From a virus (lineage: Duplodnaviria; Heunggongvirae; Uroviricota; Caudoviricetes): 64,000 bases of DNA. The DNA is taken from IMG/VR virus record IMGVR_UViG_2585427757_000006, one strand, 5' to 3'. Positions within the stretch are counted from its first letter, which is position 1. Each line of letters begins with the position of its first letter. A program made the translations under genes and the position numbers. Below are positions 4,059-56,639 of the stretch, in pieces. The notes beneath the pieces were generated by a model, which was not told the origin of the DNA, did no database searches, and was given only the letters and a program-made list of their open reading frames with translations.

Positions 4059-6092
4059 TTACTTAACCTGGTGGCCAGGTTTAGCACCAGCATCCGGGCT
4101 TAACAGGAAGATATCTTTCCCCCCGGGGCCAGCAGCCATTACCATGCCTTCGGAGATACCAAAGCGCATTTTACGCGGTGCCAGGTTGGCCACCATAATG
4201 GTGTGACGCCCGATCAGTGCCTGCGGATCTGGGTAGGCAGAACGAATACCGGAGAAGACATTGCGTTTTTCACCACCGAGATCCAGCGTCAGGCGAAGCA
4301 GTTTGTCAGAACCTTCTACAAACTCTGCGTTTTCAATCAGCGCCACGCGCAGGTCAACTTTGGCGAAGTCGTCAAAGGTGATAGTTTCCTGAATCGGGTC
4401 GTCAGCCAGTGGGCCAGTTACCGGTGCGGCTGTGGCTTTCACTTCTTCTTTGGATGCTTCCACCAGTGCTTCAACCTGCTTCATATCGATGCGGTTATAC
4501 AGTGCCTTGAACGGATTCACTTTATGGCCCAGCAGCGGTTGCTGGATACCATCCCAGGTCAGTTCTGTATTCAGGAATGCTTCTGCACGTTCAGTCAGTT
4601 TCGGCAGTACCGGTTTCAGGTACGTCATCAGCACGCGGAACAGGTTAATGCCCATAGAGCAAATCGCCTGCAGATCGGCATCGCGTCCTTCCTGCTTTGC
4701 CACCACCCACGGAGCCTGTTCATCAACATAGCGGTTAGCCAGGTCAGCCAGTGCCATGATTTCACGGATAGCTTTGCCAAATTCGCGGCTTTCCCATGCT
4801 TCGCCAATCACTTCAGCGGCATCAGTAAAGGTTTTGTACAGTTGCGGGTCAGCCAGTTCGCTTGCCAGCACGCCGTCAAAACGCTTGTTGATAAAGCCTG
4901 CATTACGGGAGGCCAGGTTAACCACTTTGTTAACGATATCGGCATTCACACGCTGAACGAAATCTTCCAGGTTGAGATCGATATCATCAATGCGCGAAGA
5001 GAGTTTCGCAGTGTAGTAGTAACGCAGGCTGTCGGCGTCAAAATGATTCAGCCAGGTGCTGGCTTTAATAAAGGTGCCGCGAGACTTGGACATCTTCGCG
5101 CCGTTCACCGTCACATAGCCGTGAACAAACAGGTTGGTCGGCTTGCGGAAGTTGCTGCCTTCCAGCATGGCAGGCCAGAACAGGCTGTGGAAGTAAACGA
5201 TATCTTTGCCGATGAAGTGGTACAGCTCGGCGGTGGAGTCTTTCTTCCAGTATTCGTCGAAGCTGGTAGTGTCGCCGCGTTTGTCGCACAGATTCTTGAA
5301 GGAACCCATGTAGCCAATCGGCGCGTCCAGCCAGACGTAGAAGTATTTGCCCGGTGCGTTCGGAATTTCAAAACCGAAGTAAGGTGCGTCACGGGAGATA
5401 TCCCACTGTTGCAGGCCAGATTCAAACCACTCCTGCATTTTGTTTGCCACCTGCTCCTGCAACGCACCGCTGCGGGTCCATGCCTGCAACATTTCGCTGA
5501 AAGAAGGCAGATCAAAGAAGAAGTGTTCGGAATCACGCATTACCGGTGTAGCGCCAGAAACCACTGATTTCGGCTCGATCAGTTCCGTCGGGCTGTATGT
5601 CGCGCCGCAGACTTCACAGTTATCGCCGTATTGATCCGGCGCTTTACATTTCGGGCATGTGCCTTTTACAAAACGGTCCGGCAGGAACATGCCTTTTTCC
5701 GGGTCGTACAGCTGAGAGATGGTGCGGTTTTTAATAAAACCGTTCTCTTTCAGGCGAGTATAGATAAGCTCGGACAACTGACGGTTCTCTTCGCTGTGCG
5801 TCGAGTGATAGTTGTCATAGCTGATGTTAAAGCCTGCGAAATCAGTCTGATGTTCCTGACTCATTTCGCCAATCATCTGTTCCGGTGTGATACCAAGCTG
5901 CTGTGCTTTCAGCATGATTGGCGTACCGTGGGCATCGTCGGCACAGATGAAATTAACCTCGTGGCCGCGCATTCGCTGGTAACGAACCCAGACATCAGCC
6001 TGGATGTGCTCCAGCATATGGCCGAGGTGGATTGAGCCGTTAGCGTACGGCAGCGCGCACGTCACCAGAATTTTCTTCGCGACTTGGGTCAT
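4059..6092 (-). CDS. metG: methionine--tRNA ligase
   Basis: 677-aa product from [40 protein letters not shown] motif, C-terminal tRNA-binding domain; start trimmed from track ORF to the conserved N-terminus. Confidence 0.95.
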
Positions 6093-6249
6093 AGTAGGCA
6101 TTACTTCTTTGTAGTGAAAAGGGGCTTGATAGTAACAAAATGGCCTTATGTCTGCCATGTGATAACAGCATTTCTCATAAATGATTAAATGTCGTAGCTG
6201 GAGTACACTACAAGGCGACAATTGCGCAAATTAAAATAAAGGAGACGGG

Positions 6250-33159: not shown

Positions 33160-36994
<3,835 letters not shown>

Positions 36995-37008
36995 AATTGT
37001 AAATTCCC

Positions 37009-38172
37009 TTAATCAAAATTCTTCTGTTTCATTGCCTCAGCCGCTTTTTGCAGCGGTCCTTTCAAGGCTTTTTCTAACTTTGTCATCTGCTCTAAGTGCC
37101 ACGCAACCGCTTGGGGCCACGTCTCTTTATTAAACCCATCAGCTTTGGTCGAAAACTGAATACGGCAAGATTTCTTCTCATCCAGCCTCATCCACTCAAG
37201 TTCTGCACCAAAAGCATGTTCAATGTCCTGTTTGGACTGACTCAACAAGTCAAAAAGGTATTTATTCTCTTCGGTAACCCCACGGCTGATCCAAAGCTCT
37301 ACTCGAAGCTCTTTTTGCAGAAATATCAGGTTATACGGACACCCACTTAACCCTGAGCCTGCTGATAACCAGTGATCTTTGCTTGGGCTAATGTTGTTAT
37401 AGAGTTGGCAAACGCTTTTCTGAAACGCCTCTAAGGCACGCTCCCAGTACTCGCGACGCACCGTATGGCGGTTTTTAAGGACCACTTCGGTGGTTTTTTC
37501 TTCCGCTTCCTTGGCATTAATGCCGATCATCAACTCTTTCGCTTCTGGCGTTGGAATGATCTGGTCAATATTAATCAGTAGCTGTTCACCCAGTGAATAA
37601 GGCGTGATTTTGAAGCAGGCAATGCTAATGCCTTGACCCAATAACCACAGCGCGGTGCTGGTCACTTCTTTGCGAAAGTTTGCCGCAACTAGCATAATAC
37701 GCTGGCTGTTACCCAGGTTGAGCTTTAACTCATCCAGATCGGGCGCATCCAAAAATTCACATATTCTCGCCGAAGCACTTGCAGGGGCATTTAACAGGTC
37801 AACCTCTGCTGTTACAGGCTCATAGCGATCTAAGTACTGCTGGTAAATGTCAACTATTTGTGCTTTGGTTAAACTGGCACAGTAAGAGGCATATTTAAGG
37901 GCCTGCCACACCACATCTCGGCCACTGTCGTCCAGCTTATTTTCAATAATGACCAAGTTGCCATCTTTATCCAGTGCCAGTAAATCTAATCGTTCACGGG
38001 TGTCATCAAAGCCATCGAACTCTTTTTGAATAATCAACAACTCTTCACCCAATGCGGAAGGTTCGTGTGCCAACCACTCCTGAAGATGCTTGCGCTCAGT
38101 AAAGCCCAACTCACTGAACTTCTTTGTCCTAACAGGACTAATCCTGTTAGTTTGATGATTTACCGTGAACAT
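37009..38172 (-). CDS. PD-(D/E)xK nuclease-fold protein of unknown function embedded in type I R-M operon
   Basis: N-terminal D-x(n)-E-x-K pattern LDLLALDKDGNLVIIENKLD; 387 aa; tightly packed between hsdS and hsdR. Confidence 0.45.
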   Translation of the reverse strand: MFTVNHQTNRISPVRTKKFSELGFTERKHLQEWLAHEPSALGEELLIIQKEFDGFDDTRERLDLLALDKDGNLVIIENKLDDSGRDVVWQALKYASYCASLTKAQIVDIYQQYLDRYEPVTAEVDLLNAPASASARICEFLDAPDLDELKLNLGNSQRIMLVAANFRKEVTSTALWLLGQGISIACFKITPYSLGEQLLINIDQIIPTPEAKELMIGINAKEAEEKTTEVVLKNRHTVRREYWERALEAFQKSVCQLYNNISPSKDHWLSAGSGLSGCPYNLIFLQKELRVELWISRGVTEENKYLFDLLSQSKQDIEHAFGAELEWMRLDEKKSCRIQFSTKADGFNKETWPQAVAWHLEQMTKLEKALKGPLQKAAEAMKQKNFD

Positions 38173-38181
38173 ATTCGCGTC

Positions 38182-39462
38182 CTATTGCTCAACCATTTCT
38201 GGGGTGATTTTTATTTTTCCTGTCACGGCGCTGTTGATCAGGGTGGTTTTGTATTCTTTAAGCTTTTCAATCTGCGACTTTTGGATATCAATCGTGCGAT
38301 TCAGATCTGGCTCAATTCCTTCAATGAACGAAATTATTTCTTGAATTTCATCTTTTGGTGGCACTGGAACCAATACACTTGCAAGACGATCCCTTGTTAA
38401 TTTTGGCTGTGCCGCACCAGAAATATATACCGTATAGTCCAATCCGCTTAATAATTCGGCCCAGTATTTAAAACCATGAAATTTTGGCTTAATAATATGT
38501 GCATGGTTATTCACCCAATACTTTCCAGTTGCAACAAAAGCCAATGGTGTTGACTTGCTTAGCAAATTCGCGCCATCTTCAGCGATCAAGATTAAATCTT
38601 CATCAAAGATGTAGTCATCAACATAATCGATAACACCACTTGCTCCGTAATACGGATATACGCCCTGTCTCGACTCTCTCTCAACTGCGCTTATTGGAAC
38701 TCTTCTACTGTTAAGAAACTCAAACGCATATCTCAATGACATTAAGTTCCAATGCGCTGGAATCTTACCAATCCAATCCACACCGGAGTCTTTCATTGGC
38801 ACATTGGGATCAAGCCCTTGGGTCACCGCCTGTTGGATGATGATCTGCTTACGCTCTTTCAGCAGGCTAATTTGCTGCTCTTTGATCGAAATCGCTTCGT
38901 CGATTAGAGCGGTTTTCTTGTCGAGAAAATTTGCAATTAGGGACTGCTCTTCTTCTGAAGGCAGAACAAAAGGAATCACCTTCATCCGTGCTTTTGAAAG
39001 GTCCCACTGACCAATCCTTACACCATCTGATGCACTACCAAAAAACGATACATATAACTTACTGCGTATCGCCCAATTGAAAAACTCAGGATTTATTGCC
39101 TTTGTAAAATCAAAAATAAAATACGCAGGACTTACAATTCCAGTGAACTTTGATACACCGTAAGAACCCTGCCACGCTTTCATTTTATTCATTCCAAATT
39201 GACCTTTCTCAAGCTTTTTATAGCCGCTAAGATCATCTGGTATAAAATTGTGATTTGACTCTTGATTATCCACGTCTCTCTCGATAACACCTTGTTCGCG
39301 TGTTATCGAAAGTAGTGGCAATTCAGGGCAGTTTTTGACCGACACCGGAGATAGGCACGAGCCTAACTTAACCAAGTCCCAATGCTCTGGAATCTCGCCA
39401 ATCCACTCATAACCAGAGTCACTATATTGATCATACTTTAGCGTTGAGGTAATGCTTTCCAT
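38182..39462 (-). CDS. hsdS: type I restriction-modification specificity subunit
   Basis: 426 aa, two-repeat architecture with conserved central and C-terminal helical spacers; 1-nt overlap with hsdM stop. Confidence 0.8.
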   Translation of the reverse strand: MESITSTLKYDQYSDSGYEWIGEIPEHWDLVKLGSCLSPVSVKNCPELPLLSITREQGVIERDVDNQESNHNFIPDDLSGYKKLEKGQFGMNKMKAWQGSYGVSKFTGIVSPAYFIFDFTKAINPEFFNWAIRSKLYVSFFGSASDGVRIGQWDLSKARMKVIPFVLPSEEEQSLIANFLDKKTALIDEAISIKEQQISLLKERKQIIIQQAVTQGLDPNVPMKDSGVDWIGKIPAHWNLMSLRYAFEFLNSRRVPISAVERESRQGVYPYYGASGVIDYVDDYIFDEDLILIAEDGANLLSKSTPLAFVATGKYWVNNHAHIIKPKFHGFKYWAELLSGLDYTVYISGAAQPKLTRDRLASVLVPVPPKDEIQEIISFIEGIEPDLNRTIDIQKSQIEKLKEYKTTLINSAVTGKIKITPEMVEQ

Positions 39463-41891
39463 TAGGCTTCTCCCTGAACTTCCGCCACTTTCACGCCTAA
39501 TATTTGTGCAATCAAACCATCAGCCTTCTGCTCTAGATTGATAATGTCAGTTGCTACTTCTTCAAGACTACGTAATGGCTTATGCAGATAGAAATACTTA
39601 TTGAAGCTGATTTCATAGCCAATTTTTACCGTATCTAGGTTTATCCATGCTTCATCGACATGAGGCTTCACTTCATCTAGGAAGTACTGGTAAATGCTTT
39701 GCTTTAATGGAACAGATTCTGTATCTCGCAGGTCTGAATTGGTCTCGTAAGTGATATACTCGCCTTTTTTACCGCCTTCTGCTGAAGGAACGGGGTAATA
39801 ACCAAAATCTGGCAAGTCAGCGACTTCACACTCATAGCGCTCCAGCAGGTCGTTTAATTTATCACCCGTTAATTTAACTACCTTTTTAACCACTTTCTTG
39901 GCGGTTTCGTCATACCAGCTCACCGCGTGAAGAATGGCATTTTTCTCAGGTGCTGAAAGCTTAATAGCATGGGCTTTTAGCGATTTATCAACTTGGGTTT
40001 TAAAGCTATTGAAGTCATCAAATTCAATGCTACCGATGTCAGCCATCAGCGTTTGTGCAGTTTCAAGCAATGCTTTTAGCGCCAGCCAGTGTTTCACATC
40101 AAGCAGTTTGGCCTTAGCCTTAGCATTGAGACTGATGTCGTTATCTTCACACCAAGAAAGAATGTCTTTCTCGATGGATTTTAAGAAGCTCTTTTTCTGA
40201 TCTGACCCGTAGCCAGTTTTTTCGTAAACACGTTCGCCGTGCTCTGCGTACACGTACTCCATCACTTCACTAAGTTGCTTATCAAAACGCAGTGGGGCTA
40301 TGGCATCTTGAGTAAACTTGGCTTTGCGGCGATCTGGGCGCTCGATAGTGACTTTGTAGTAGCCAAAATCGTCATTGCTGAATACCTTACTGGCGATGCC
40401 AACAGGATCATTGTTTGCATCCAGTGCTCTTTCAACATCCTTACACGCGAGGTAAGTATCGGTAATTTCCGTGATGTGCTCAGGCGCAAATTCGCAGTTT
40501 TTGTTACCTAAGTTCTTGCGCAACTTACGGTAGAGCAAGCTGGCATCAATTAATTGCACCTTACCTTTACGCGCCTCAGGTTTATTGTTGCTCAACACCC
40601 AAATGTAAGTGGTAATGCCAGTGTTATAGAACAGGTTATTAGGTAACTGAACGATGGCATCTAGCATGTCGTTTTCAATGATGAAGCGACGAATATTACT
40701 TTCACCACCGCCCGCATCTCCGGTAAAGAGCGATGAGCCGTTATGAACAGAGGCAATCCGGCTGCCTAATGGACTTACGCTCGGATCTTTCATCTTGTTG
40801 ACCATCTCCATTAAGAAAAGCAGCTGGCCATCACTCGAACGTGGCGTGGCATCCACCACTTCGAGATTTCCCCAATAGTCTTTCAGGCTAACCTTAAAAC
40901 GCGGGTCAATCACATCACTGCCGTCTTTAATGTACTTCTGTTCAGACGCCCAACTCTTACCGTATGGCGGGGTAGACAACATAAAGTCAAAGCGTGAAGC
41001 CGCAAACTCGTCGGTAGACAAGGTTGAGCCTACCTTGATGTTCTCAGGGTTGTTACCTTTGATCATCATGTCCGATTTACAAATCGCGTAGGTCTCGTCA
41101 TTGATCTCTTTGCCGTAAAGGTAAATATCTCGGCTGTCGTTCGGGTATTTCTCTTCAATGAAGTTTTGAGATTCAGTGAGCATACCACCGCTACCACACG
41201 CAGGGTCGTAAACGGTCATGGTCAATGGTAGCTGCTCTTTCACTGGGTCAAAAACCAAGTGTGTCATCAGCTCAATCACTTCCCTAGGTGTAAAGTGCTC
41301 ACCGGCTTCTTCGTTATTCTCCTCGTTGAACTTACGGATCAACTCTTCGAACACGTACCCCATACCCAGGTTAGTAAGGGCTGGCATCTTGTTGCCATCT
41401 GGGTCTTCGATCGTTTCATGAGTTAAGTTGATGTAAGGGGAAACAAACTTTTCGACGACATCAAGAAGGACTTGCTTTGAGGCCATGTGACGAATTTGCG
41501 ACTTGAGGTTAAAGCATTCAATGATTTCTTTAACATTATCGCTAAAGCTAAGCAGGTACTCTTCAAAGTTGGCGAGTAATATCTGTTGGTTATTCGTTGC
41601 GGTGTTGAACAGGGATTTCAGGGTCCATTTAGATGTATTGTAAAAAACATAACCACTAGCCGCCTTCAATGGTTCATCATCAAGCTCCGTGGCTTGCATC
41701 TCTTCTTTTTGGAACTTGACCTCTTCAAGCACGGCTTCTTTGGTGGGTTCAAGTAACGTATCTAAACGTCGTAATACCACCATAGGTAAAATCACATCGC
41801 GGTACTTACCGCGAACGTACACATCACGTAAACAGTCGTCGGCAATGTTCCATATAAATGAGATGAGCTTGTTATGTACACTATGATCCAT
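39462..41891 (-). CDS. hsdM: type I restriction-modification N6-adenine DNA methyltransferase
   Basis: N-terminal FIWNIADD, motif I PACGSGGML, motif IV LSTPPYG; start set at MDHSVHN. Confidence 0.85.
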   Translation of the reverse strand: MDHSVHNKLISFIWNIADDCLRDVYVRGKYRDVILPMVVLRRLDTLLEPTKEAVLEEVKFQKEEMQATELDDEPLKAASGYVFYNTSKWTLKSLFNTATNNQQILLANFEEYLLSFSDNVKEIIECFNLKSQIRHMASKQVLLDVVEKFVSPYINLTHETIEDPDGNKMPALTNLGMGYVFEELIRKFNEENNEEAGEHFTPREVIELMTHLVFDPVKEQLPLTMTVYDPACGSGGMLTESQNFIEEKYPNDSRDIYLYGKEINDETYAICKSDMMIKGNNPENIKVGSTLSTDEFAASRFDFMLSTPPYGKSWASEQKYIKDGSDVIDPRFKVSLKDYWGNLEVVDATPRSSDGQLLFLMEMVNKMKDPSVSPLGSRIASVHNGSSLFTGDAGGGESNIRRFIIENDMLDAIVQLPNNLFYNTGITTYIWVLSNNKPEARKGKVQLIDASLLYRKLRKNLGNKNCEFAPEHITEITDTYLACKDVERALDANNDPVGIASKVFSNDDFGYYKVTIERPDRRKAKFTQDAIAPLRFDKQLSEVMEYVYAEHGERVYEKTGYGSDQKKSFLKSIEKDILSWCEDNDISLNAKAKAKLLDVKHWLALKALLETAQTLMADIGSIEFDDFNSFKTQVDKSLKAHAIKLSAPEKNAILHAVSWYDETAKKVVKKVVKLTGDKLNDLLERYECEVADLPDFGYYPVPSAEGGKKGEYITYETNSDLRDTESVPLKQSIYQYFLDEVKPHVDEAWINLDTVKIGYEISFNKYFYLHKPLRSLEEVATDIINLEQKADGLIAQILGVKVAEVQGEA

Positions 41892-42123
41892 TTTCTTTTC
41901 CTGTTCAGTGTTGGTTGCACCCCACAAAGTTGCTGCAACGGCTTCACTATAAATTTAAAATTCTGTTCTTTCTGTAACGCCTAAATGGCCTCTACATCGT
42001 TCGATTAACTTGTTCTACCCGGCGCTAGATTTAAGTTTATGACACCATAAAGTGAATCGCCACAGGTTTAATAGACTGAATCGCCACAGGTTTAACAGAC
42101 ACCTCAGAGTCATTTAAGATGAC

Positions 42124-46660: not shown

Positions 46661-47830
46661 TCACGTCTTAATAGTTTCTGCTACGTCGGCTAATATCGCT
46701 TCTAGTCGTTCTCCCTCTTCAGGTCTGAAGTAAAGAATGTTGGGGTTAAACCCGTAAAAGACAGTAACGTCAAGGTCTGGAAGATACTCCTTCCTGCCGA
46801 CCAAATCGGATGGCTTGTTTTTGTTGTTAAACAATGAAGTTGCCCGGCTGCCACACGTCAGCACATAGGTCGGACGCACCAGATTGATCTCTTCACGCAT
46901 AAAGTCGGTGAACTGGCCGATCTCGTCTTTGGTGTAGTCTTTTTCTTTGTCTTTAACCTTCTTGCAAACACCTGTGACATAGAGATCGCCCATGCGTAAA
47001 TCTCCAGCCGTCAATAGCTTGGCCTTAAAGTCGTCGTATCCGTTCTCCATAAAGTAACCGGTTCGAGCATCATTGCCGTTCGCATTGTCCAGAATGATCA
47101 TGATTTTCGGCTTAATACCAATGCTGGGGCGGATTAGTTCATCACCTAAGCCCATTTCAGCCGCCATCCGCGTCATGAGTACGTTAATTTCAGCCGAACG
47201 TTTGGGGTTCATCTCAAACGGACGTGAGGCTTTAACTGCGTCTATGACAAGGTTTCCCATCAATTCAGCCTGGTCGCGTAGGCGCTCTGGATCAGTTGCT
47301 GGCAGACTGCCTGGCTCGATGGATGCAAACGCCCCTACTTTTTGCAGCGATTCGCGCACTCGACTATTACAGGCACGTTTCTCGACAGCTTCTTCGAATT
47401 GCGCCAGTGACTCGAATTTGCCGCCAACTTTTTCTCGCGCTCTCATGATGGCTTGGCAGCCATTCTCAGAACACCCCTTCACAGCAGAGAAGGGCGCATA
47501 CAGCACCTGGCTGCCATCTTCAAGCGTGCGGATCTCGATTCGGTTAGATGACACGTTAACGTCTGGTGGCAATACGCGAATGCCATAGGTCAGCGCATCT
47601 TTAACCAGCCCCTGGTGTTTATCTTCGCCAAGAATAGTGAGAGCAGCAGCGAAAAACTCTGCGGGATAATGAGTTTTCAACCACATAGATTGATAACTGA
47701 TTAAGGAGTAAGCAACAGAGTGTGATTTGTTGAAGGCATACGCGCCGGATTTCTCAAACATATTCCAGATTTCTTCGGCTCGTTCGTGCGTCAGGCCATT
47801 GCTCTCTTCGACAACACCGGTAATTTTCAT
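46661..47830 (-). CDS. dnaE: DNA polymerase III alpha (DnaE-like) C-terminal fragment
   Basis: AYAFNKSHSVAYSLISYQSMWLKTHYPAEFFAAAL matches the DnaE finger region; own start codon overlapping the HNH gene stop. Confidence 0.75.
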   Translation of the reverse strand: MKITGVVEESNGLTHERAEEIWNMFEKSGAYAFNKSHSVAYSLISYQSMWLKTHYPAEFFAAALTILGEDKHQGLVKDALTYGIRVLPPDVNVSSNRIEIRTLEDGSQVLYAPFSAVKGCSENGCQAIMRAREKVGGKFESLAQFEEAVEKRACNSRVRESLQKVGAFASIEPGSLPATDPERLRDQAELMGNLVIDAVKASRPFEMNPKRSAEINVLMTRMAAEMGLGDELIRPSIGIKPKIMIILDNANGNDARTGYFMENGYDDFKAKLLTAGDLRMGDLYVTGVCKKVKDKEKDYTKDEIGQFTDFMREEINLVRPTYVLTCGSRATSLFNNKNKPSDLVGRKEYLPDLDVTVFYGFNPNILYFRPEEGERLEAILADVAETIKT

Positions 47831-48561
47831 GCAGTCACCTCATCAATCTTCACGAACTCATCCCCATTGGAGGCCAGCCAGTTCCGTTGGCGCTCCCAGC
47901 TCCATATCTCTTCACGCATTTCACTATGCAGGCGAATGTGGGCGTCTTCTGGAAGTGCTACAAGATTCCCAGGGGCGTTATCTATCGTATCGCGGTTAAT
48001 ATGGTGGACATGTTCATCGTCACGTAGCTCCCGACCGAGACGTTCTTTCGCTATCAATCGATGAACGTATTCGTATTGCGAAACGCCATTGTTACCAACC
48101 AGCTGCATCATGTAGCCGTTGGTTTTTACGATGATGCCACCTTTGTAGTTGTTCGCTTCTTCTCCGATCTTTCCGCGTTTGGCAGCCGCCAGCTTTTCCT
48201 TCGTCTCCGCGCGGATTGTTCTGCCGGTTAGCTTTTTCGAAACGGTGGCCACTCGCTCATCGATATCAGCACGCAGACCGGCATTCCACGAGGTTTTCCC
48301 ATACATAGGGTTGCCAGTGCCAGTCCGGGCTTCGGAGAGACGCTTCATACGTTCGTCATTATTTTTGTTTTTGCCACGATTCCAGGCTGGGGTAGCGGAG
48401 ATCCGCGCGCTTCCGCGCCTGATCCCCCATTTGGCTAATAAGCGGTCAATATTTGCCTTGCTGCAACCAGCTTCGGCGGCAATGTCTTCTTTTCTCATCA
48501 GGTCAACCATGTAACGCTGACGTAACCATTCTTCTGTGATTTTGTACTTCGTACTCGGCAT
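47827..48561 (-). CDS. HNH homing endonuclease with NUMOD-like repeats
   Basis: EHVHHINRDTIDNAPGNLVALPEDAHIRLH HNH motif; NPMYGKTSWNAG repeats; own promoter-proximal motif. Confidence 0.8.
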   Translation of the reverse strand: MPSTKYKITEEWLRQRYMVDLMRKEDIAAEAGCSKANIDRLLAKWGIRRGSARISATPAWNRGKNKNNDERMKRLSEARTGTGNPMYGKTSWNAGLRADIDERVATVSKKLTGRTIRAETKEKLAAAKRGKIGEEANNYKGGIIVKTNGYMMQLVGNNGVSQYEYVHRLIAKERLGRELRDDEHVHHINRDTIDNAPGNLVALPEDAHIRLHSEMREEIWSWERQRNWLASNGDEFVKIDEVTA

Positions 48562-48609
48562 TTCTAAGACTCACTAAACAAATTGTTTTCTTATCTTATA
48601 AATTAATTC

Positions 48610-50973
48610 TCAAATATCGAAGCTCGTTATGTCGGCATTTATTGCCATTGCTTCGGCATAAGTGCGACGCTCACCATCAGCACAAAGTAGGCGTGCTGCT
48701 TTATGGATTTTTCTCGTAGAACCATCATCCAGTGACACTGTCACCCAGCCTTCCTCCGCTCGCTTAATGAAGTCGCCGCCAATGGATTTCATTTTCTCCA
48801 TATCTTTTTTCCCGATCGCTTTCCTGACCGAGTCTGCTTCCGCCATTGAGAACCCCGCCAAGATTCGCGTAGCAGCCATGATCTGTTCCTGATAAATCAG
48901 AACTCCGTTTGTGTCGCGAGAGATGTCGTCCAGCATTGGGTGTAAGGAATGTGGGGCCATGAAGCCTTTGGCCACGGACACATAATCGTCCAACATGCCG
49001 GATTGAATCGGGCCAGGTCGGAAGAGCGCAGTTGTAGCGACGACCGTTTTAAAGCTCATTGGCTCAATTCCACCACCTAAATCTTTAAGCAGCTTGCGCA
49101 TTGGGCCTGATTCAAGCTGGAATACGCCCTGTGTATACCCTGCAGCAAAACCATCCAGCACCTTGCGATCTTCAAGAGAAATGGCATCAAGATTGATATC
49201 TTCACCTGTGTTCTCTTTTATGTAGCGTTTTGCACTATCGAGCAAATCGAGAGTTGCCAGGCCAAGCACGTCCAGCTTAATTAGGCCCATAGCCTCGCAG
49301 TAACGCTTGTCAAATGCGATACAACGCGCGTCACCACGGCGTTCAACCGGTGTACGTTCTGTCAGAGGAACACCTGCTACGATCATCCCTGCCGCATGTC
49401 TACCAAAGCCACGCATAAGGCTTTGTAACTTGCAGGCTGCATTGAATGCATCAGGATATTTTGTTGCGTATTTGTCGAGACTTGCCAGTTGTTCGCGCAG
49501 CTCTTCCAATGGAAGGCTATCATCCTCGACGTTCTTCAGTTCTTTTGATACCGCCATATCTGCGGACTCCACACCATAAATACGAGCGGTGTCACGTAGT
49601 GCAGAGGCTGCGCCCAGGTAGGTGAAGTTCGGAATGCCTGCAACGTAATCTTCGCCGTAGCGTTCATTCAGATACTCGATCACCTCATGGCGACGTGCCT
49701 GGCTGAAGTCCAAGTCCGCATCCGGCAAGTCGAGACGCTCAGGGTTGATGAAACGCTCAAACAGAAGACCGTGACGGATTGGGTCGACGTTGGTTATGCC
49801 TATGCACCACGCCACCAGAGAACCGGCAGAGGAACCACGACCAGGCCCAACGGGAATGCCAGTTTCACGACTATGATTCATCAGATCGCGCACCATCAGG
49901 AAGTAACCACAGAATCCCAGGCGAGTCAGCGTGTCCATTTCGTACTTTAGCCGCTCAACATAAACCCTGTTCTCAGAAGCAGGTGGTGTGTATCCAAACT
50001 CTTTTGTGGTAAGACGTTTACGCAGCCCTGCAACAGCCAGTTTCATCAGCGTTGCAGGTTCGTCGTCTGCCATCTTGGGCAGTGCTGGTGGCAATTCATG
50101 CCAGCGCCATGTGCAGGCATCGATAATGGAGTCCTGCGTTGTTGAGGCCATTGCAGCTGTTACCGGCACATCCATGCGAACGGAGAAGGCTTTAAGCGCC
50201 TCAAGGAGATGGCGACGACCATTGATGGCGTTATCTCGCTGGTGGGGGATACGCAGACGATGCGGCTGGTCGATTTTTATGTTGTTCGTAACCATGTGCG
50301 CAATGTCTTTAATGTCTGCATCGTCGATCGATTCGTAATAAGCGGGATAGAACGCCACTGGCTCTATTTTCAATGCGCTGGCGACTTTCATCGCCCGGAC
50401 GTTAATCTGGTCGTAGAATGGGGTAGGGTGCGGATAAACCACACTATAGAAGTTGTCTTTTCCACCCGCTGTAATCAGTGTGCTTATGATTTTTGCAAAA
50501 TCGTTGCGTTGGAACACGCTACCGATGTCGGAAGTAAGCAGGATGATGTTGCCTTTGGCATATGTAGAAACCAACTGTTCGAGCGAGAGACGCGGCACAA
50601 AGTAGAACTGTTCTCGTGTGTTGGCCACCGTCATTAGTTCGCAGATGTCGCGATATCCTTGCTCATTTTTAATTAGAGCGGTAAACGAGTAGTTACGTCC
50701 CCGCTCTAATGATTCCATACATCTCATAGATTCTTTAGCAAGTTTAGCCCGGTGCTCGTATGTGGGATCATCAACAATGTTTAGTTTCACACCACAAATA
50801 ACCGCCATGTCGTCACCAGCGGCACGTTGTAGTGGAATAACGCTCGCAATATTCATGCTATCTGCTGAAATTACAGCGGTGTAGCCAGCTTCTCTGGCAA
50901 TCTTCACCGCGTTTTCAGCTTTTAGAGCCGACTCCCCAAGTGAGAAGTCAGTTCGAACCATCAGTGCCTTCAT
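48610..50973 (-). CDS. dnaE: DNA polymerase III alpha (DnaE-like) N-terminal fragment (PHP and polymerase core)
   Basis: GIPVGPGRGSSAGSLVAWCIGIT, DADLDF, KLDVLGLATLD, ALFRPGP; homology ends 44 codons before the stop. Confidence 0.8.
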   Translation of the reverse strand: MKALMVRTDFSLGESALKAENAVKIAREAGYTAVISADSMNIASVIPLQRAAGDDMAVICGVKLNIVDDPTYEHRAKLAKESMRCMESLERGRNYSFTALIKNEQGYRDICELMTVANTREQFYFVPRLSLEQLVSTYAKGNIILLTSDIGSVFQRNDFAKIISTLITAGGKDNFYSVVYPHPTPFYDQINVRAMKVASALKIEPVAFYPAYYESIDDADIKDIAHMVTNNIKIDQPHRLRIPHQRDNAINGRRHLLEALKAFSVRMDVPVTAAMASTTQDSIIDACTWRWHELPPALPKMADDEPATLMKLAVAGLRKRLTTKEFGYTPPASENRVYVERLKYEMDTLTRLGFCGYFLMVRDLMNHSRETGIPVGPGRGSSAGSLVAWCIGITNVDPIRHGLLFERFINPERLDLPDADLDFSQARRHEVIEYLNERYGEDYVAGIPNFTYLGAASALRDTARIYGVESADMAVSKELKNVEDDSLPLEELREQLASLDKYATKYPDAFNAACKLQSLMRGFGRHAAGMIVAGVPLTERTPVERRGDARCIAFDKRYCEAMGLIKLDVLGLATLDLLDSAKRYIKENTGEDINLDAISLEDRKVLDGFAAGYTQGVFQLESGPMRKLLKDLGGGIEPMSFKTVVATTALFRPGPIQSGMLDDYVSVAKGFMAPHSLHPMLDDISRDTNGVLIYQEQIMAATRILAGFSMAEADSVRKAIGKKDMEKMKSIGGDFIKRAEEGWVTVSLDDGSTRKIHKAARLLCADGERRTYAEAMAINADITSFDI

Positions 50974-51151
50974 GTGTTTTTACCTTTCTGGTTTTTTTGA
51001 TTTTGTCATTGGGGAAGCCTACGAACTTCCCATGCATCGAAATCGCAACTTCTTTTGCTGATTGGTGACAATCGGGCTTGTCTGGACACACCAGACAAGC
51101 CTTACCAGTTTCAGAAGCAGCGATAAGAGAGCCGAAACATCCTTTACGCAC
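50948..51151 (-). CDS. small cysteine-containing protein
   Basis: 67-aa ORF with CLVCPDKPDC. Confidence 0.3.
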   Translation of the reverse strand: MRKGCFGSLIAASETGKACLVCPDKPDCHQSAKEVAISMHGKFVGFPNDKIKKTRKVKTHEGTDGSN

Positions 51152-51153
51152 GA

Positions 51154-52389
51154 TTAACCAAATATTTTTTGAACAACTTCACGAGCCGCTTGTGCAGAAG
51201 CTGAAGGGAGTTTGTTAATGAAAGAACGCTCAATACCTGTCACAAAGTCGCCTCGCATCATTCCAATCTTGGCCGACAACAAAAGTTCACGAGGGCCAAT
51301 TGGCTGACTAATAAGGTGTTCTTCGTATCCATCGCGAACGATACCGGCAAACTTAACCATCTTTTCAGCGTATTCATCCACGATGCCTGCATTTGTCAAC
51401 ATGTTGATCTCTGCGTCTTTGCTCATGTATTTCACATTCGAAACGATGCCAAAACGCGAAAAGTTCGCGGCGTTCTGGATGTTTGTACCCTGGTACAAGC
51501 CGGTTTCATCACCAGATCCGTTCGTGTTGCCAGTGCCAATGAAAGCAAACCGTTCATGCGGAGTAATGCGACGCCATTCTGGAGTTGCCTCTTTGATGAC
51601 CAACGCTTCACCTTCCAGCACTGGCTGATACACGCCAAGAATTTGTGGAAACGCAAAGTCGTATTCATCCGCGAGGTAAACCCAGCCATGCTTCATTGCG
51701 AGCGCAAGCAAGCCAGGTTCGAAATACGTAGAGCCATCACGCGCCAGAATTTGCCCCGTAACATGTGCCTCTTCCATTGATGCTGTATGTTGGGCACGGA
51801 TCAACGGACGATTGAGCAAAGCACATAGCTGTGTAGGCAATGACGATTTGCCTGTTCCTGCATGACCCCACAAATAGCCAGGTATGCCAAGTTCAAGCAT
51901 CATGAAAATATCTTTGATCAGTTCGAAGTCGCCATATACGTAGCCTTTCTTCACTTCGGGAACGAACTCTGGATACGGCGTATTGACGTTGACGCTAACC
52001 ATGAGCGGCGTCCCACGTTTTGTTCCGAGTTCTTCCACCGTTACGTTTAGCAGTTCGTGAGCTGCGACCAGATCTGTCTTGTACTCAACTGTGCCTGTGT
52101 AGCCAGGGCTACTGGTCAAGCCAGAAGATTTGGCCATTTCGCTTTTTTGCTCGGCACGTTTAGCTTGAATTGCATCAAGTGCCTTTTTCGATAGCGTTGG
52201 TTCATCTGGAAACTGCGTTGTGTACATTTTCAGTACGGTGTCAGGATCGGCATCTTTTACTGACTCAGGAATGCCCTCGCAATTACCATTGGCTACATGG
52301 GACTTAAAATAGTGAAATGATTTGCCGCACCACTTGCAAACAAGGTAATCAGAAGGATTTTTTTCATTTTGCAGTGCAGTAGTCGTCAT
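51154..52389 (-). CDS. AAA+ ATPase, CobS/MoxR-like, with N-terminal zinc-finger-like motif
   Basis: CKWCGKSFHY, Walker A LWGHAGTGKSS, Walker B YLADEYD. Confidence 0.65.
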   Translation of the reverse strand: MTTTALQNEKNPSDYLVCKWCGKSFHYFKSHVANGNCEGIPESVKDADPDTVLKMYTTQFPDEPTLSKKALDAIQAKRAEQKSEMAKSSGLTSSPGYTGTVEYKTDLVAAHELLNVTVEELGTKRGTPLMVSVNVNTPYPEFVPEVKKGYVYGDFELIKDIFMMLELGIPGYLWGHAGTGKSSLPTQLCALLNRPLIRAQHTASMEEAHVTGQILARDGSTYFEPGLLALAMKHGWVYLADEYDFAFPQILGVYQPVLEGEALVIKEATPEWRRITPHERFAFIGTGNTNGSGDETGLYQGTNIQNAANFSRFGIVSNVKYMSKDAEINMLTNAGIVDEYAEKMVKFAGIVRDGYEEHLISQPIGPRELLLSAKIGMMRGDFVTGIERSFINKLPSASAQAAREVVQKIFG

Positions 52390-52484
52390 GCGTTTTTCCT
52401 TTGTTCTCTAATGAGCGTTCAACTTCTTATATAAATATATCATCATCTATCGTAAGTAGTTACTTATCGTTAAGGCTGTTTTGT

Positions 52485-54593
52485 TCACTTTAAAATGATA
52501 CGAGATAGTTCAGTAACTACAGATGAACCAAGACTATCAACGCTCGTTACCAGGGCATGATTTGAGTAAAATCTCTCCGGTGCGTCAGTCATGATGCCAA
52601 TTGCCATCAAATCAATATCAGTCTGCGTTTCAATTTGCTTCGCAACTGAACGCAAATGAGCGTCAAAACCTCTCCCAACAGCCCACGGCGCGCCATCACT
52701 CAGAACAAGCATGATCTTCCTGTCCTCCATGCGACCGGAAAATAACGATGCAAGGCTGGCTATGCTTTCACCATCCACGTTATTAAGAAGTGGGAATGTG
52801 TAGCCTACGCACCCCATACGTGAGCGAACTTCGCGAGAATTTACCTTTTCATTCCAATTTTTGATGATAGGTAGCATTAAAGATTCAAAGCGAGAGAACT
52901 CATACTTGACAGCCTTAAGTTCTCCTGCCGCCATATGACTACCAAATGTAGTGAAGCCGGTGATAATGTTGGGAACATTTATTCGATCAAGGGCATCGGC
53001 GATGGTATATGCACTTGCAAGAGCCAGTTTAATCGTTATACCACTCATTGAACCTGATAAATCAATCACTTGTTGAACACAGGCGTTAACGGCTTTAGAT
53101 TCTTCTTTTTTACGAAACACGCGAGCATCATTCATTGCTAATCTGTAGATACTAGAACCATGAATGCGCCCCCGACGCTGGCCCGGTATAAACTGAACTC
53201 TGTTTCTGCTTGCTATTGCTCGCTCCAGGTCTTTTGCCAGCGTCGACGAAACACCTGACGAAAGATGCTTTTCAATATATTTGTCGAAGAGCTGGTTGCC
53301 TTCAGGAACGATGCGATAGCGGCTGATTGGATATCCTCCCAAATCAATATCGGAGAATGTTTTAATAAGCCGTTTGATATGGGCTTCTGCCTGATCAATG
53401 GAGCCGATGAAGTCGTATGAGCGATTGTATGGCCTGTATTCGCTTTTCGAGCTTTCTGTTAACTCGCTTTTAATCGTTTCGGATAGCGCATCTTCTGTCA
53501 TGCCTCCGACTTCATCTTCCATGCTATCCAACTCCTCTAAAGCCTCTTCCAGACTCATTTTTGACGGAGTTGGGATATCTGAAGAGCCGTCTTCTGTCGT
53601 TTTTCTTTTTTCGTGGTCAGCGGTTAATGATTCTGACGCCGCGTTATCAGAAGCATCAGAATCTGATACCTCTTTATCATTTTCTGTATCATCGAATATT
53701 GTTTCTGATGATTCAGAATTATCTGAATCATCACTGTCGTTATTATCATGTTTGTGCTTACTATGTGATTCTGATTTGATAGATTTGTGGTTATCTAACA
53801 CTGAGGGTGTCTCATGATCTTCGTTGTCTTCACTGTTTTCTCCAGAGGCATCCGTCTGGTCAGCGTCTGAAGGATCGGAAGTTTTTCCCGGAGCTGACTC
53901 CTTACCTTTGCTTTCACTTTCAGTGTCTTTGAGGATCTTAGCTATGGTCGCAGCCACCTTTACACAATCCTCGGTGCAAGACATGTTACGCACGGCCACA
54001 TCGATACCATGTTCTTTTAATAATGAAATTGGTTTCTCAATGACAGGCCAATATTCATCCATGAAATCTACGAACGGTGCTTGGCCATCCCAGGCTCTTA
54101 CAACCGGACAGAGAAAGAAGTTTAGAAAAAGCGCGCGCTGATCTTTGCCACAATAAGCAATAGCCTCTGAAGCCTTTGGTTTAAAGACTTTTTCGATTAT
54201 AAGGCGCTGAGTTGCCATCAGATTACGTCTTGTTCCGTTAAAGACCTGACCCATTTTTCGCTCGATGAACACGTCTTCTAAGGCATTCCATAGCGACCAG
54301 GAAGGAACGCGTCCTTTTTCTCTCATTTTGTTGGACACACGAATATCGGTAAACAAAATGTGAGCAACCTCATGATCGAGAAATCCGCGCACAGCATTCA
54401 TCAATGCCGGTGTTGCGTTATCCGGGATTGATGGGATGTTTACGAGAATTGGCTCTCCATCATCGTTATAGCGTACATAAGCGTCGTCCCCTCGTTCTGC
54501 AACAGGGATGTTTTTACCTGAAAGGAGAGCGACTACTCGTTTTACACTGTCACGGAAGTCCTGAACCTCTTTGATGGAACGTTTTTTAGACAT
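52485..54593 (-). CDS. von Willebrand factor A domain protein (CobT-like partner of the AAA+ ATPase)
   Basis: MIDAS motif VIDLSGSMSG; long acidic Ser/Asp-rich low-complexity linker. Confidence 0.65.
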   Translation of the reverse strand: MSKKRSIKEVQDFRDSVKRVVALLSGKNIPVAERGDDAYVRYNDDGEPILVNIPSIPDNATPALMNAVRGFLDHEVAHILFTDIRVSNKMREKGRVPSWSLWNALEDVFIERKMGQVFNGTRRNLMATQRLIIEKVFKPKASEAIAYCGKDQRALFLNFFLCPVVRAWDGQAPFVDFMDEYWPVIEKPISLLKEHGIDVAVRNMSCTEDCVKVAATIAKILKDTESESKGKESAPGKTSDPSDADQTDASGENSEDNEDHETPSVLDNHKSIKSESHSKHKHDNNDSDDSDNSESSETIFDDTENDKEVSDSDASDNAASESLTADHEKRKTTEDGSSDIPTPSKMSLEEALEELDSMEDEVGGMTEDALSETIKSELTESSKSEYRPYNRSYDFIGSIDQAEAHIKRLIKTFSDIDLGGYPISRYRIVPEGNQLFDKYIEKHLSSGVSSTLAKDLERAIASRNRVQFIPGQRRGRIHGSSIYRLAMNDARVFRKKEESKAVNACVQQVIDLSGSMSGITIKLALASAYTIADALDRINVPNIITGFTTFGSHMAAGELKAVKYEFSRFESLMLPIIKNWNEKVNSREVRSRMGCVGYTFPLLNNVDGESIASLASLFSGRMEDRKIMLVLSDGAPWAVGRGFDAHLRSVAKQIETQTDIDLMAIGIMTDAPERFYSNHALVTSVDSLGSSVVTELSRIILK

Positions 54594-54691: not shown

Positions 54692-54904
54692 TTAACAGAT
54701 TCTGACGGCTAAAGACCCGGAGCCGATATTGAGAAGCGTGAAGCGTTTGTTGTTAAGTTCGAATATAAAGCCAGTTGTGTCATTCACACCAACCTGAATC
54801 TGCTCATTCGGTAGATCGGTGAGGATGTCAGCTACACACTCATCAGCTAATTTCTGTACGTGTCCGATCTCAAGAGCGATTAGGCTGGAAATAGTGGTGT
54901 TCAT
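54692..54904 (-). CDS. hypothetical protein
   Basis: 70-aa ORF. Confidence 0.3.
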   Translation of the reverse strand: MNTTISSLIALEIGHVQKLADECVADILTDLPNEQIQVGVNDTTGFIFELNNKRFTLLNIGSGSLAVRIC

Positions 54905-55154: not shown

Positions 55155-55541
55155 ATGTCTGACAACAAGATTGAATTTATAGAAAGTCGCTATGCTGCTT
55201 TTATCGCAGGGCTGATTGAATCCTCACCTATGAGTCAGGCCCAAATAGCCAGACTTATTGGTTATAAAAATGCCAACAACCTTTCTTTAATTAAAAGTGG
55301 CAAAATTCCTTTGCCTATCGATAAGGTTCGTCCGTTGGCGCTGGCGCTGGGTATTGAGCCAAGTCGTCTTATGATGATGGTGCTGGAAGAACGCCAACCT
55401 GAACTCGCAGCATTTTTATACAAAGAAGGCACCGCTCCTCTTAACGAGGACGAAAAACAGGTTCTTGCTGCATATAACGAGCGATTCGGTAAAGAGAAAG
55501 GCGCATCACAAAAGGTTGTTGAGGCTATAAAGTCTCTATGA
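55155..55541 (+). CDS. helix-turn-helix transcriptional regulator (XRE-like)
   Basis: MSQAQIARLIGYKNANNLSLIKSGK HTH; one of few plus-strand genes, convergent with the recombinase. Confidence 0.6.
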   Translation: MSDNKIEFIESRYAAFIAGLIESSPMSQAQIARLIGYKNANNLSLIKSGKIPLPIDKVRPLALALGIEPSRLMMMVLEERQPELAAFLYKEGTAPLNEDEKQVLAAYNERFGKEKGASQKVVEAIKSL

Positions 55542-56639
55542 AAAATTTACACGAATAAGCTCTGTTGATAGACGATCTCCCTTAAATTTGTGGTCAATTT
55601 CGTCTAAATCCGGTTGCTCTACGATTGATGCGATGTACGTCGAGAAACTTTCTAAGGCGTCTCGCATCTCGTCCATATAATCGTGCCGGTCGTAGACCCG
55701 ATCTATCCCCTCAAGACTGTGGTTCATGATTTTACGTGATACCTCCTGGCTTATGCCTAATGCTGGGAAGTAACTACGCGCAGTACGGCGCAAATCTCGG
55801 GGTGTAAATGGCTCAAGCTCCATCAGTTCTGGTCGTTCCAGAATACGACGTAATGCCTGGGCTATTGCCACTTTAGACATAGGAAGGTCTTTCCCGATTT
55901 TTTTATTCGAAGGCACGAGCCACTGGCTGTCTTTACCATATTCGAACAACTCTTCAATACAAGTGCGCATTAATGAGCTTAAAGGCAGAGAATGCTCACG
56001 GGCAGATTTGTTCCTCTTGCCTTGATTCCAAACCCCACGCTTAAGATTGAACTCACTTTTTTTAGCCCGCAGTACTTCGTCAGGTCGTCTTGCGGATACA
56101 AGACATAGCCTGGCCGCCCATTTTGTACCAGCACACACATTGAAGTAGTCCCATATATTCCAGAACACCCATACCTCTGCGTCGGTCAGCTTCCGCTCGC
56201 GAGGTGTGGGCTTTGCGCCACCGGCAACTTTGTTTAGTGACATATCGTTTAACGGTGACACGTCTATCATCCCCTGGAAGGCGCACCAGCTAAGGAACTG
56301 CTTCATCAGAGAGAAAACGCGGCGGCCCATAACAATTTTGCCATCCAGTATTAGTGGGTTGACCAGTTGGTTCACCATGAACCTATTAATGTCACTTACT
56401 TTTACATCGGCAATGTGCGGCAAAACATGTATCAAAATACAATGAACAGCGATCTCTGGCCGACGTCTGGTTATCAGCAGAGATAAGCGAGTGAATAACA
56501 TGAATGCGTCCGAGAATCTCATGTCATTGCTGACCTGGGAGATCATAACGGCCTGCATTTGAGATGCTCTTTCGAGATACTCTATCGCCTCTTTTGAGGT
56601 GTTCTCCGCAGCGCGTGCTCTGTCAAAGCTATTTTTCAT
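55536..56639 (-). CDS. tyrosine site-specific recombinase
   Basis: C-terminal R...H-x-x-R...Y pattern: LRRTARSYF, HSLEGIDRVYDRHDY. Confidence 0.75.
   Translation of the reverse strand: MKNSFDRARAAENTSKEAIEYLERASQMQAVMISQVSNDMRFSDAFMLFTRLSLLITRRRPEIAVHCILIHVLPHIADVKVSDINRFMVNQLVNPLILDGKIVMGRRVFSLMKQFLSWCAFQGMIDVSPLNDMSLNKVAGGAKPTPRERKLTDAEVWVFWNIWDYFNVCAGTKWAARLCLVSARRPDEVLRAKKSEFNLKRGVWNQGKRNKSAREHSLPLSSLMRTCIEELFEYGKDSQWLVPSNKKIGKDLPMSKVAIAQALRRILERPELMELEPFTPRDLRRTARSYFPALGISQEVSRKIMNHSLEGIDRVYDRHDYMDEMRDALESFSTYIASIVEQPDLDEIDHKFKGDRLSTELIRVNFS

Follow-up and report, generated by a model that had tools for sequence, protein, structure and literature searches.

The gene pair at 51154..54593 of IMG/VR record IMGVR_UViG_2585427757_000006, a 64,000-nucleotide stretch of viral DNA (the whole of which we call the window), raises the question of what a phage does with two proteins that resemble the CobS and CobT subunits of cobaltochelatase. 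Pairs of this kind are annotated as 'porphyrin/cobalamin biosynthesis protein' in >1000 plasmids and several phages, and virome studies often count cobS/cobT as a sign of virus-boosted B12 synthesis. By its sequence, the window is an SSU5/pHCM2-type phage-plasmid of Escherichia coli, because over 6.4 kb the region shares 99.5% identity with ~110-kb E. coli plasmids (for example, NZ_CP031136) and is 96–98% identical to the Escherichia phages Cyrano, CMS-2020a and PhiR41_1, and 79% identical to Salmonella phage SSU5. The comparisons described here give good support to the view that the two proteins would form a CobST-like motor–adaptor complex that does not serve cobalt chelation. Although the phage CobS/CobT-like pair has already been catalogued, it stands out as a distinct variant through its domain-level differences from the true chelatase and its conserved triad with dnaE.

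Both open reading frames (ORFs) are on the minus strand, as are the window features given below unless stated otherwise, and lie exactly where the original prediction had placed an AAA+/vWA pair with a 702-aa partner. However, that prediction had put the ATPase first and the vWA protein second, whereas in the direction of transcription the 702-aa CobT-like gene (52485..54593; PHROG 1576) precedes the 411-aa CobS-like gene (51154..52389; PHROG 249). The ATPase matches Pfam AAA_5 (E 2e-15; 57.4 bits against a gathering score of 22) and is 30% identical to Sinorhizobium meliloti CobS; PHROG 249 matches residues 11–410 (E 1e-106) and thus includes the N-terminal extension. Among PDB sequences, its best match is Brucella CobS 9ujv (E 1e-25, residues 142–411), followed by midasin, CbbQ and NorQ. 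The partner matches Pfam CobT (PF06213) at residues 9–294 (E 4e-27; 95.8 bits against 26.1) and CobT_C/VWA (PF11775) at residues 492–701 (E 3e-82; 275.8 bits against 21), as well as Brucella CobT and the crystallised C-domain in the PDB (E 1e-13 to 1e-15; 21vt, E 1e-15).

Kinship with CobS and CobT is clear, but both proteins score far below the NCBIfam equivalog cut-offs that mark the true enzyme subunits: 86.6 bits against 558.55 for TIGR01650 (CobS), over residues 141–411 only, and 67.2 bits against 759.05 for TIGR01651 (CobT), over residues 297–697. No CobN or other cobalamin gene was found in a Pfam scan of the ten large window ORFs, nor in the annotation of Cyrano, the closest fully annotated phage (105 of 108 kb examined). 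The nucleotide enzymes of the element comprise a class I large-subunit ribonucleotide reductase (NrdA/NrdB in Cyrano), ThyX and DHFR, none of which, to our knowledge, uses B12. Close relatives come from E. coli, Klebsiella, Enterobacter, Salmonella, Yersinia and Citrobacter, and we know of no aerobic CobN pathway in any of these hosts; B12 production in E. coli needed foreign cobN, cobS and cobT (PMC6249242). These results support the original prediction of a CobS/CobT-like pair: clear orthology to a characterised cobaltochelatase and a cobalamin context, which would have spoken against it, were both not found.

The motor has kept the catalytic machinery of CobS. Its AAA+ module (residues 142–411; 51157..51966) was mapped onto Brucella CobS by means of the published Brucella residues. 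In a 26-sequence alignment reaching down to 20% identity, Walker A (G175–S182, 51844..51867; Brucella G71–S78, with K181 corresponding to K77), Walker B (D241–E242, 51664..51669; Brucella D141–E142), sensor-1 (N288), the Arg finger (R312) and sensor-2 (R367) are all invariant, the last three being equivalent to Brucella N186, R210 and R271. The docking interface appears to be kept as well: the C-terminal E404/Q407/K408 correspond to Brucella CobS E308/Q311/R312, which contact CobT_N, and R69 and D73 of the CobT-like protein are the sequence equivalents of the CobT_N docking partners R76 and D80. The helix-2 insert of the MoxR clade (clade 6) is alignable but four residues shorter than in Brucella CobS. 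Brucella pore residue S102 is an invariant Glu here (E206), while the shaft of the adaptor is basic (QRRGRIHG) and the canonical shaft acidic, which suggests that pore and shaft have changed together.

What canonical CobS lacks is the module at the N-terminus. The zinc-finger-like motif noticed in the original prediction is real (C18-x2-C21-x9-H31-x5-C37), and the pattern C-x2-C-x9-H-x3-6-[H/C] occurs within the first 80 residues of 99 of the 120 homologues. The motif lies in a domain (residues 13–70; 52180..52353, core 52279..52338) that is probably of the Ros/MucR type, for which the evidence at the level of the family is good. A profile of 47 N-termini had Ros 2JSP as its best PDB match (E 2e-4; next, E 0.06), and the alignment spans both Cys, both His and the following 'T-x-E-x-Y-x-E-K-[FW]'. 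Individually, 25 of these 47 members match Pfam ROS_MUCR (PF05443) at E <0.01 (best, 4e-8), and one full-length homologue, at 28.8 bits, passes the Pfam cut-off of 25.4. The domain is missing from the proteins of ICP2 and CRP-810 as well as from canonical CobS, and a literature search for a link between MucR and CobS found none. The net charge of the zinc-finger core was also tried as a proxy for DNA binding and proved uninformative. In Xenorhabdus hominickii, the CobS-like protein (locus L014, 8445..10754) is 769 aa long and has a LAGLIDADG intein-like insert right after the P-loop; the neighbouring dnaE, and recA in relatives, carry homing-endonuclease (intein-like) inserts too. Intein-like inserts usually lie in conserved replication and repair proteins.

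The CobT-like protein was modelled with AF2 from 40 sequences (mean pLDDT 80). Its N-terminal domain (residues 1–231; 53901..54593) consists of one helix, a three-stranded sheet and a helical bundle in a predicted peptidase M48-like fold; M48/M56 protease fold matches were also obtained. The N-terminal domain contains HEVAH (H74-E75-x-x-H78; 54360..54374), a zinc-metallopeptidase-type motif, and, on helix 96–117 of the model, EDVFIE (E106, D107, E111; 54261..54278), a candidate 'glutamate helix' that would supply the third metal ligand. HExxH is present in 143 of 146 family representatives, and H74, E75, H78, E106, D107 and E111 are 97–99% conserved (E106 99%, D107 98%, E111 99%). In the hhalign comparison, R-G-L-G-D-S-M-A-L-R of S. 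meliloti CobT stands opposite R-G-F-L-D-H-E-V-A-H, so that the S. meliloti protein carries S, M and R where the three catalytic residues would be but keeps the two Glu. A published remark holds that viral cobT was 'mistakenly annotated as a peptidase'; because HExxH is retained in phage-type CobT and replaced in S. meliloti CobT, that remark may merit re-examination. True CobT looks like a version whose peptidase site decayed, which would bear on the origin of the chelatase adaptor. In the CobT-like proteins of phages nickie (L004, 6974..9058) and BUCTxx99 (L011, 6992..8977), the HExxH histidines are gone; the MIDAS motif and the gene order are retained. Foldseek found nothing significant for the N-domain model in a PDB copy from which CobST entries were apparently absent. 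A PDB search with a single N-domain sequence returned chance matches only (for example, HLA chains), and a profile of 32 N-domains did not find Brucella CobT_N among PDB sequences, its top match, AcrIIA26 (E 0.005, 48 columns), being judged a chance one.

The original prediction had also described a central tract of roughly 200 residues rich in D, S and E, and had called it extreme. The tract is present (residues 220–395; 53409..53936) and includes the acidic string SDDSDNSESSETIFDD, but it is 176 aa long (S 19%, D 15%, E 15%, net charge −35), and only ~108 aa of it (residues 231–338; 53580..53903) are predicted to be disordered, with pLDDT <50 at 231–263 and 265–338; in the model, the rest of the acidic residues form helices that belong to the C-terminal domain. 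Nor is it extreme. Across 146 full-length representatives at ≤50% identity, the linker is 35–284 aa long (median 151), with median D+E of 39% and median net charge of −43, whereas the window linker, delimited by the same column boundaries, has 128 aa, D+E 29%, S+T 27% and a net charge of −23; it falls below the family median in acidity but is richer in Ser/Thr. The enzymatically active S. meliloti CobT carries a similar acidic segment, EDDNEPDEQESETDEDQ, and the Brucella linker, of ~90 aa, is disordered (bioRxiv 10.64898/2026.07.21.739949). Acidity of the linker is thus a family-wide trait that includes genuine CobT. Among close relatives, linker length and sequence are highly variable and both flanking domains are conserved (total lengths 684–790 aa); tandem DNA repeats, as a source of linker expansion, were not found in the linker-coding DNA.

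Downstream of the linker, residues 462–502 (53088..53210) form a basic beta-hairpin in the model (strands 465–472 and 493–499), which aligns in hhalign to the stretch just ahead of the VWA fold in S. meliloti CobT, the position of the Brucella shaft; G471, G475, D489, R491 and F493 are conserved at ≥89%. The profile comparison of residues 383–701 with S. meliloti CobT 311–616 (E 3e-41) included this stretch, and we take the hairpin as the probable counterpart of the CobT shaft. The VWA domain follows (52488..53087). The MIDAS motif seen earlier as DLSGSMSG has its DLSGS at residues 511–515 (53049..53063), and the ligands D511, S513, S515, N605 and D633, which correspond to Brucella CobT D422/S424/S426/N518/D546, are 100% conserved in 147 sequences.

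The neighbours of the pair are genes of DNA replication, recombination and nucleotide metabolism. A Cys-rich 67-aa ORF (50948..51151; PHROG 6337), conservation of which is confined to the clade of enterobacteria, Xenorhabdus and Morganella, joins cobS to dnaE and overlaps both the stop of cobS and the start of dnaE, which suggests translational coupling along cobS-orf67-dnaE. The conserved downstream neighbour is a phage DnaE-type polymerase (46661..50973; Pfam PHP, DNA_pol3_alpha, finger and HHH_6), interrupted in the window by an HNH/NUMOD3 homing-endonuclease gene (47827..48561) into ORFs of 787 and 389 aa. These halves align to residues 1–781 and 785–1166 of the intact 1168-aa Cyrano DnaE, so almost nothing was lost at the break. 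Downstream of the pair lie the genes for DnaE, a UvsY-like protein, a gp32-like SSB, a 5′–3′ exonuclease and RecA; those for ligase, primase and helicase are on its upstream side, past an integrase gene.

The family is a large one. It comprises 5061 clusters at 50% identity and occurs on at least 526 IMG/VR contigs and in 1062 PLSDB records, including Yersinia pestis pMT1, pHCM2-like elements of Salmonella, and plasmids of Klebsiella, Enterobacter and Acinetobacter. The 80 IMG/VR loci inspected were all SSU5-type relatives (42–100% identical) and added no diversity. Bacterial loci were retrieved by a scan with the HExxH peptide pattern, which yields phage-type loci only and no canonical cobT. 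In 20 of the 31 loci so obtained, cobT, cobS and dnaE follow one another on one strand; in one, cobS is upstream of cobT with dnaE still downstream; two (L024 and L036) lack dnaE despite enough downstream sequence; and eight end too soon. Their hosts include Gamma-, Beta- and Alphaproteobacteria, Desulfosarcina and one cyanobacterium, and nearly all of the CobS neighbours bear the finger or a degenerate form of it. The same order was found in four phages (SSU5-like, Rhizobium RHEph10, Pseudomonas nickie and Stenotrophomonas BUCTxx99), and in ICP2 the pair lies directly upstream of primase, helicase and PolA. The block lies on nine contigs of 96–113 kb (L013, L014, L019, L021, L023, L033, L037, L040 and L042) from Xenorhabdus, Morganella, Massilia, Paracoccus, Magnetospirillum, Faunimonas, Roseospira and Chitinibacter, which suggests SSU5-sized phage-plasmid-like elements far beyond the Enterobacteriaceae. 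Roseobacter phage CRP-810 (L009, 1827..3680) and Gordonia phage GMA3 (L010, 4011..5681) look like other architectural variants, with ATPases of 617 and ~556 aa encoded upstream of cobT and devoid of the Ros/MucR finger. For the canonical pair, we used S. meliloti record CP090106.1 of the plasmid collection (L043, 2933..5873); this 3.7-Mb record is labelled pSymB in PLSDB but carries rpmB, aroB and the canonical cobS-cobT, and is probably a chromosome.

We propose that the pair is a CobN-independent motor and adaptor on the CobS-CobT plan that remodels, and perhaps cleaves, a protein handled in phage DNA replication, a reading to which we give a probability of about 45%. In this proposal, the ring-forming AAA+ CobS-like motor would dock onto the N-domain of the CobT-like adaptor. 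By analogy with related systems, the MIDAS site would capture an acidic residue of the target protein, and ATP-driven ring movement, relayed through the segment inserted in the pore, would pull on or remodel the captured target; the long polyanionic linker would keep both domains of the adaptor tethered, like its counterparts in true CobT, BchD and midasin. The general MoxR–vWA principle is that the vWA domain captures a peptide on which the MoxR ATPase then acts (PMC7159879), and it is from this principle that we infer action on a MIDAS-captured protein. The target would not be CobN; it is likely to be a protein handled during replication, given that the pair lies within the replication block and seems to be coupled in translation to phage DnaE. 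The putative Ros/MucR-type finger may bring the motor to DNA, and the adaptor N-domain, with the HExxH...E site lost in the real chelatase, may cleave the captured protein. The replication role, DNA targeting by the finger and cleavage at HExxH are the weaker inferences of the set. Taken to its limit, the proposal makes phage-type CobST a DNA-targeted, ATP-driven extractor and protease, in which the finger would sit on DNA, MIDAS would grip a DNA-bound protein and HExxH would cut it. This stronger form is doubtful in our estimate. If true, host or repressor proteins would be cleared from the template as phage replication starts, the pair would be a bacterial-virus counterpart of midasin or Cdc48-Wss1/SPRTN, and a pair routinely scored in viromes as a 'cobalamin auxiliary metabolic gene' would be mis-assigned.

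Several observations weigh against this proposal. The N-domain alignment to canonical CobT is modest (hhalign E 4e-4, probability 34%) and involves a single canonical sequence. Phages nickie (S-E-x-x-K) and BUCTxx99 (R-E-x-x-T) have kept the pair without the His ligands, so proteolysis is not a universal core function. The finger of the window is a divergent C2HC variant (H-x5-C) of the enterobacterial clade that has no Pfam match on its own, and some relatives have zinc-less variants (C-x2-D). A CobT-like gene is present in only ~74 of the 1326 phage records that encode DnaE, and in ICP2, CRP-810 and Gordonia phages DnaE is not encoded next to the pair. Because most DnaE-encoding phages lack the pair and the pair also occurs away from DnaE, the link may be inherited synteny of one large phage lineage and not a functional dependency.

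The only functional proposal that we found for viral cobST, the hijacking of host CobN, is itself a hypothesis (PMC8651126), and, as the original prediction had held, no established function exists: our literature search found no experimental study of any phage CobS or CobT. Under this proposal, the two proteins would be auxiliary metabolic gene products that join a host CobN (or ChlH-like) subunit and raise cobalamin synthesis. Homology to CobS and CobT is clear, the docking residues and the shaft are conserved, and PHROG places the ATPase among auxiliary metabolic genes. Nevertheless, we consider this explanation improbable, since the hosts of the lineage are not known to have the aerobic CobN pathway, the ORFs and annotation examined hold neither a cob gene nor a known B12 user, the equivalog scores are very low, and the gene order is opposite to that of S. 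meliloti cobS-cobT; the zinc finger and the retained HExxH would be left unexplained. With hosts not known to have CobN and proteins carrying modules that the chelatase lacks or has lost, the B12-boost reading is without support in this lineage. A better candidate, although still an unlikely one, is a metal-insertion or assembly chaperone for a phage metalloenzyme (the PHP domain of DnaE or the di-iron site of NrdB), acting in the manner of NorQ/NorD, CoxD/CoxE or CbbQ/CbbO. The task of most characterised MoxR–vWA pairs is to mature an enzyme partner, the PDB sequence matches include CbbQ and NorQ, and the synteny with dnaE is tight and widely conserved, with the genes apparently coupled in translation. 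However, ~94% of DnaE-encoding phage records do without the pair, which is also found alongside PolA-type replication, and a chaperone would have no role for the HExxH site or the zinc finger. An obligatory DnaE chaperone was considered as the lead explanation and down-weighted because most DnaE-encoding phages lack the pair.

Two further explanations would place the pair in conflict between phage, plasmid and host. In one, the polyanionic linker would mimic DNA and trap nucleoid proteins or restriction enzymes, which motor and protease would then remove in host take-over or anti-defence. We think this rather implausible: linker acidity is a property of the family, because the genuine S. meliloti CobT has a similarly acidic linker with no DNA involved (and the Brucella linker is also disordered), and no anti-defence family was matched, although no anti-defence library was searched and PADLOC covers defence systems. 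In the other, the plasmid would carry the pair as a cargo module for anti-phage defence or abortive infection. MoxR–vWA pairs do form the cores of several predicted conflict systems (PMC7159879), and the window carries further defence cargo in the form of a type I restriction-modification (R-M) system; but in PADLOC-DB 2.0 CobS had no match and CobT only a weak one to DrmE (15.8 bits, E ~1e-3), and the pair has a fixed place in the replication block of virion-isolated phages instead of lying in variable cargo regions. This last explanation we regard as very improbable.

The remaining features of the region complete the picture of the locus. Upstream of cobT, a 70-aa ORF (54692..54904) is probably the first gene of the leftward transcription unit that includes cobT. 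It faces a divergent HTH repressor-like gene on the plus strand (55155..55541), the Cyrano counterpart of which is annotated as a putative repressor, and the integrase gene noted above lies at 55536..56639, its Cyrano counterpart being annotated likewise. A promoter and terminator scan around the operon found nothing beyond shuffled expectation. Elsewhere in the window, the complete type I R-M system (33977..41927; HsdR 1005 aa, HsdS 426 aa, HsdM 821 aa and a 387-aa ORF) forms an insert within the recombination region and is missing from the matching stretch of NZ_CP031136 and Cyrano. The window (4059..6221), like Cyrano, encodes a methionyl-tRNA synthetase; that of the window is full-length and has a tRNA-binding domain at its C-terminus. 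The pair is found in clinically relevant phage-plasmids, and its function is directly testable: the key residues (Walker B, MIDAS, HExxH and zinc finger) are defined, and the E. coli element is genetically tractable.

Among known systems, the closest is the cobaltochelatase CobS-CobT of Brucella melitensis (9ujv/9uka; bioRxiv 10.64898/2026.07.21.739949) and S. meliloti. All AAA+ catalytic residues are shared, as are the sequence equivalents of the docking residues (E-x2-Q-R/K at the CobS C-terminus; R/D residues of CobT), and the adaptor follows the same plan of M48-like N-domain, acidic disordered linker, putative shaft and VWA domain with a D-x-S-x-S/N/D MIDAS. However, the ATPase is only ~30% identical and the VWA domain 26%, and the phage type differs from canonical CobS (328–331 aa) in its ~140-aa N-extension with the Ros/MucR-type zinc finger, from S. 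meliloti CobT in having HExxH in place of S-M-x-x-R, and from S. meliloti cobS-cobT in that cobT comes before cobS. Compared with Brucella, it has a helix-2 insert four residues shorter, E206 and not S102 in the pore, a basic and not an acidic shaft, and a longer linker (~90 aa in Brucella; here ~108 aa are predicted to be disordered, and the family median is 151 aa).

Midasin (Rea1) is the second-best PDB sequence match of the ATPase (E 8e-12, AAA_5 type). Its overall logic is the same, in that a long D/E-rich region accompanies the AAA+ ring and a MIDAS domain holds the substrate protein while the motor pulls it out. It has been grouped with the chelatases in the MoxR clade (PMC7159879), but it differs as a single giant polypeptide with six fused AAA modules that acts on ribosome assembly factors and has neither a peptidase-like domain nor a zinc finger. 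NorQ/NorD, CbbQ/CbbO, CoxD/CoxE, RavA/ViaA and BchI/BchD are likewise two-gene systems of a motor and a VWA adaptor with a third protein as target, and BchD also has an acidic linker; however, the adaptors NorD, CbbO, CoxE, ViaA and BchD lack a CobT-type M48-like N-domain with HExxH, and the effectors of NorQ/NorD-type pairs are known enzymes whose genes lie close by; in the present locus no effector gene is evident. With the Ros/MucR domain (PDB 2JSP, PF05443), the finger of the family shares the C-x2-C-x9-H-x4-H spacing and the 'T-x-E-x-Y-x-x-K-[WFY]-P' segment, but it stands at the N-terminus of an AAA+ ATPase and not after an oligomerisation domain, and in the window the fourth ligand is a Cys, one residue further, with an inserted loop. 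For the adaptor N-domain, the M48/M56 gluzincin metallopeptidases (Ste24, BlaR1) are among the closest systems, and by function the nearest would be AAA+-assisted DNA-associated proteases of the Cdc48-Wss1 type.

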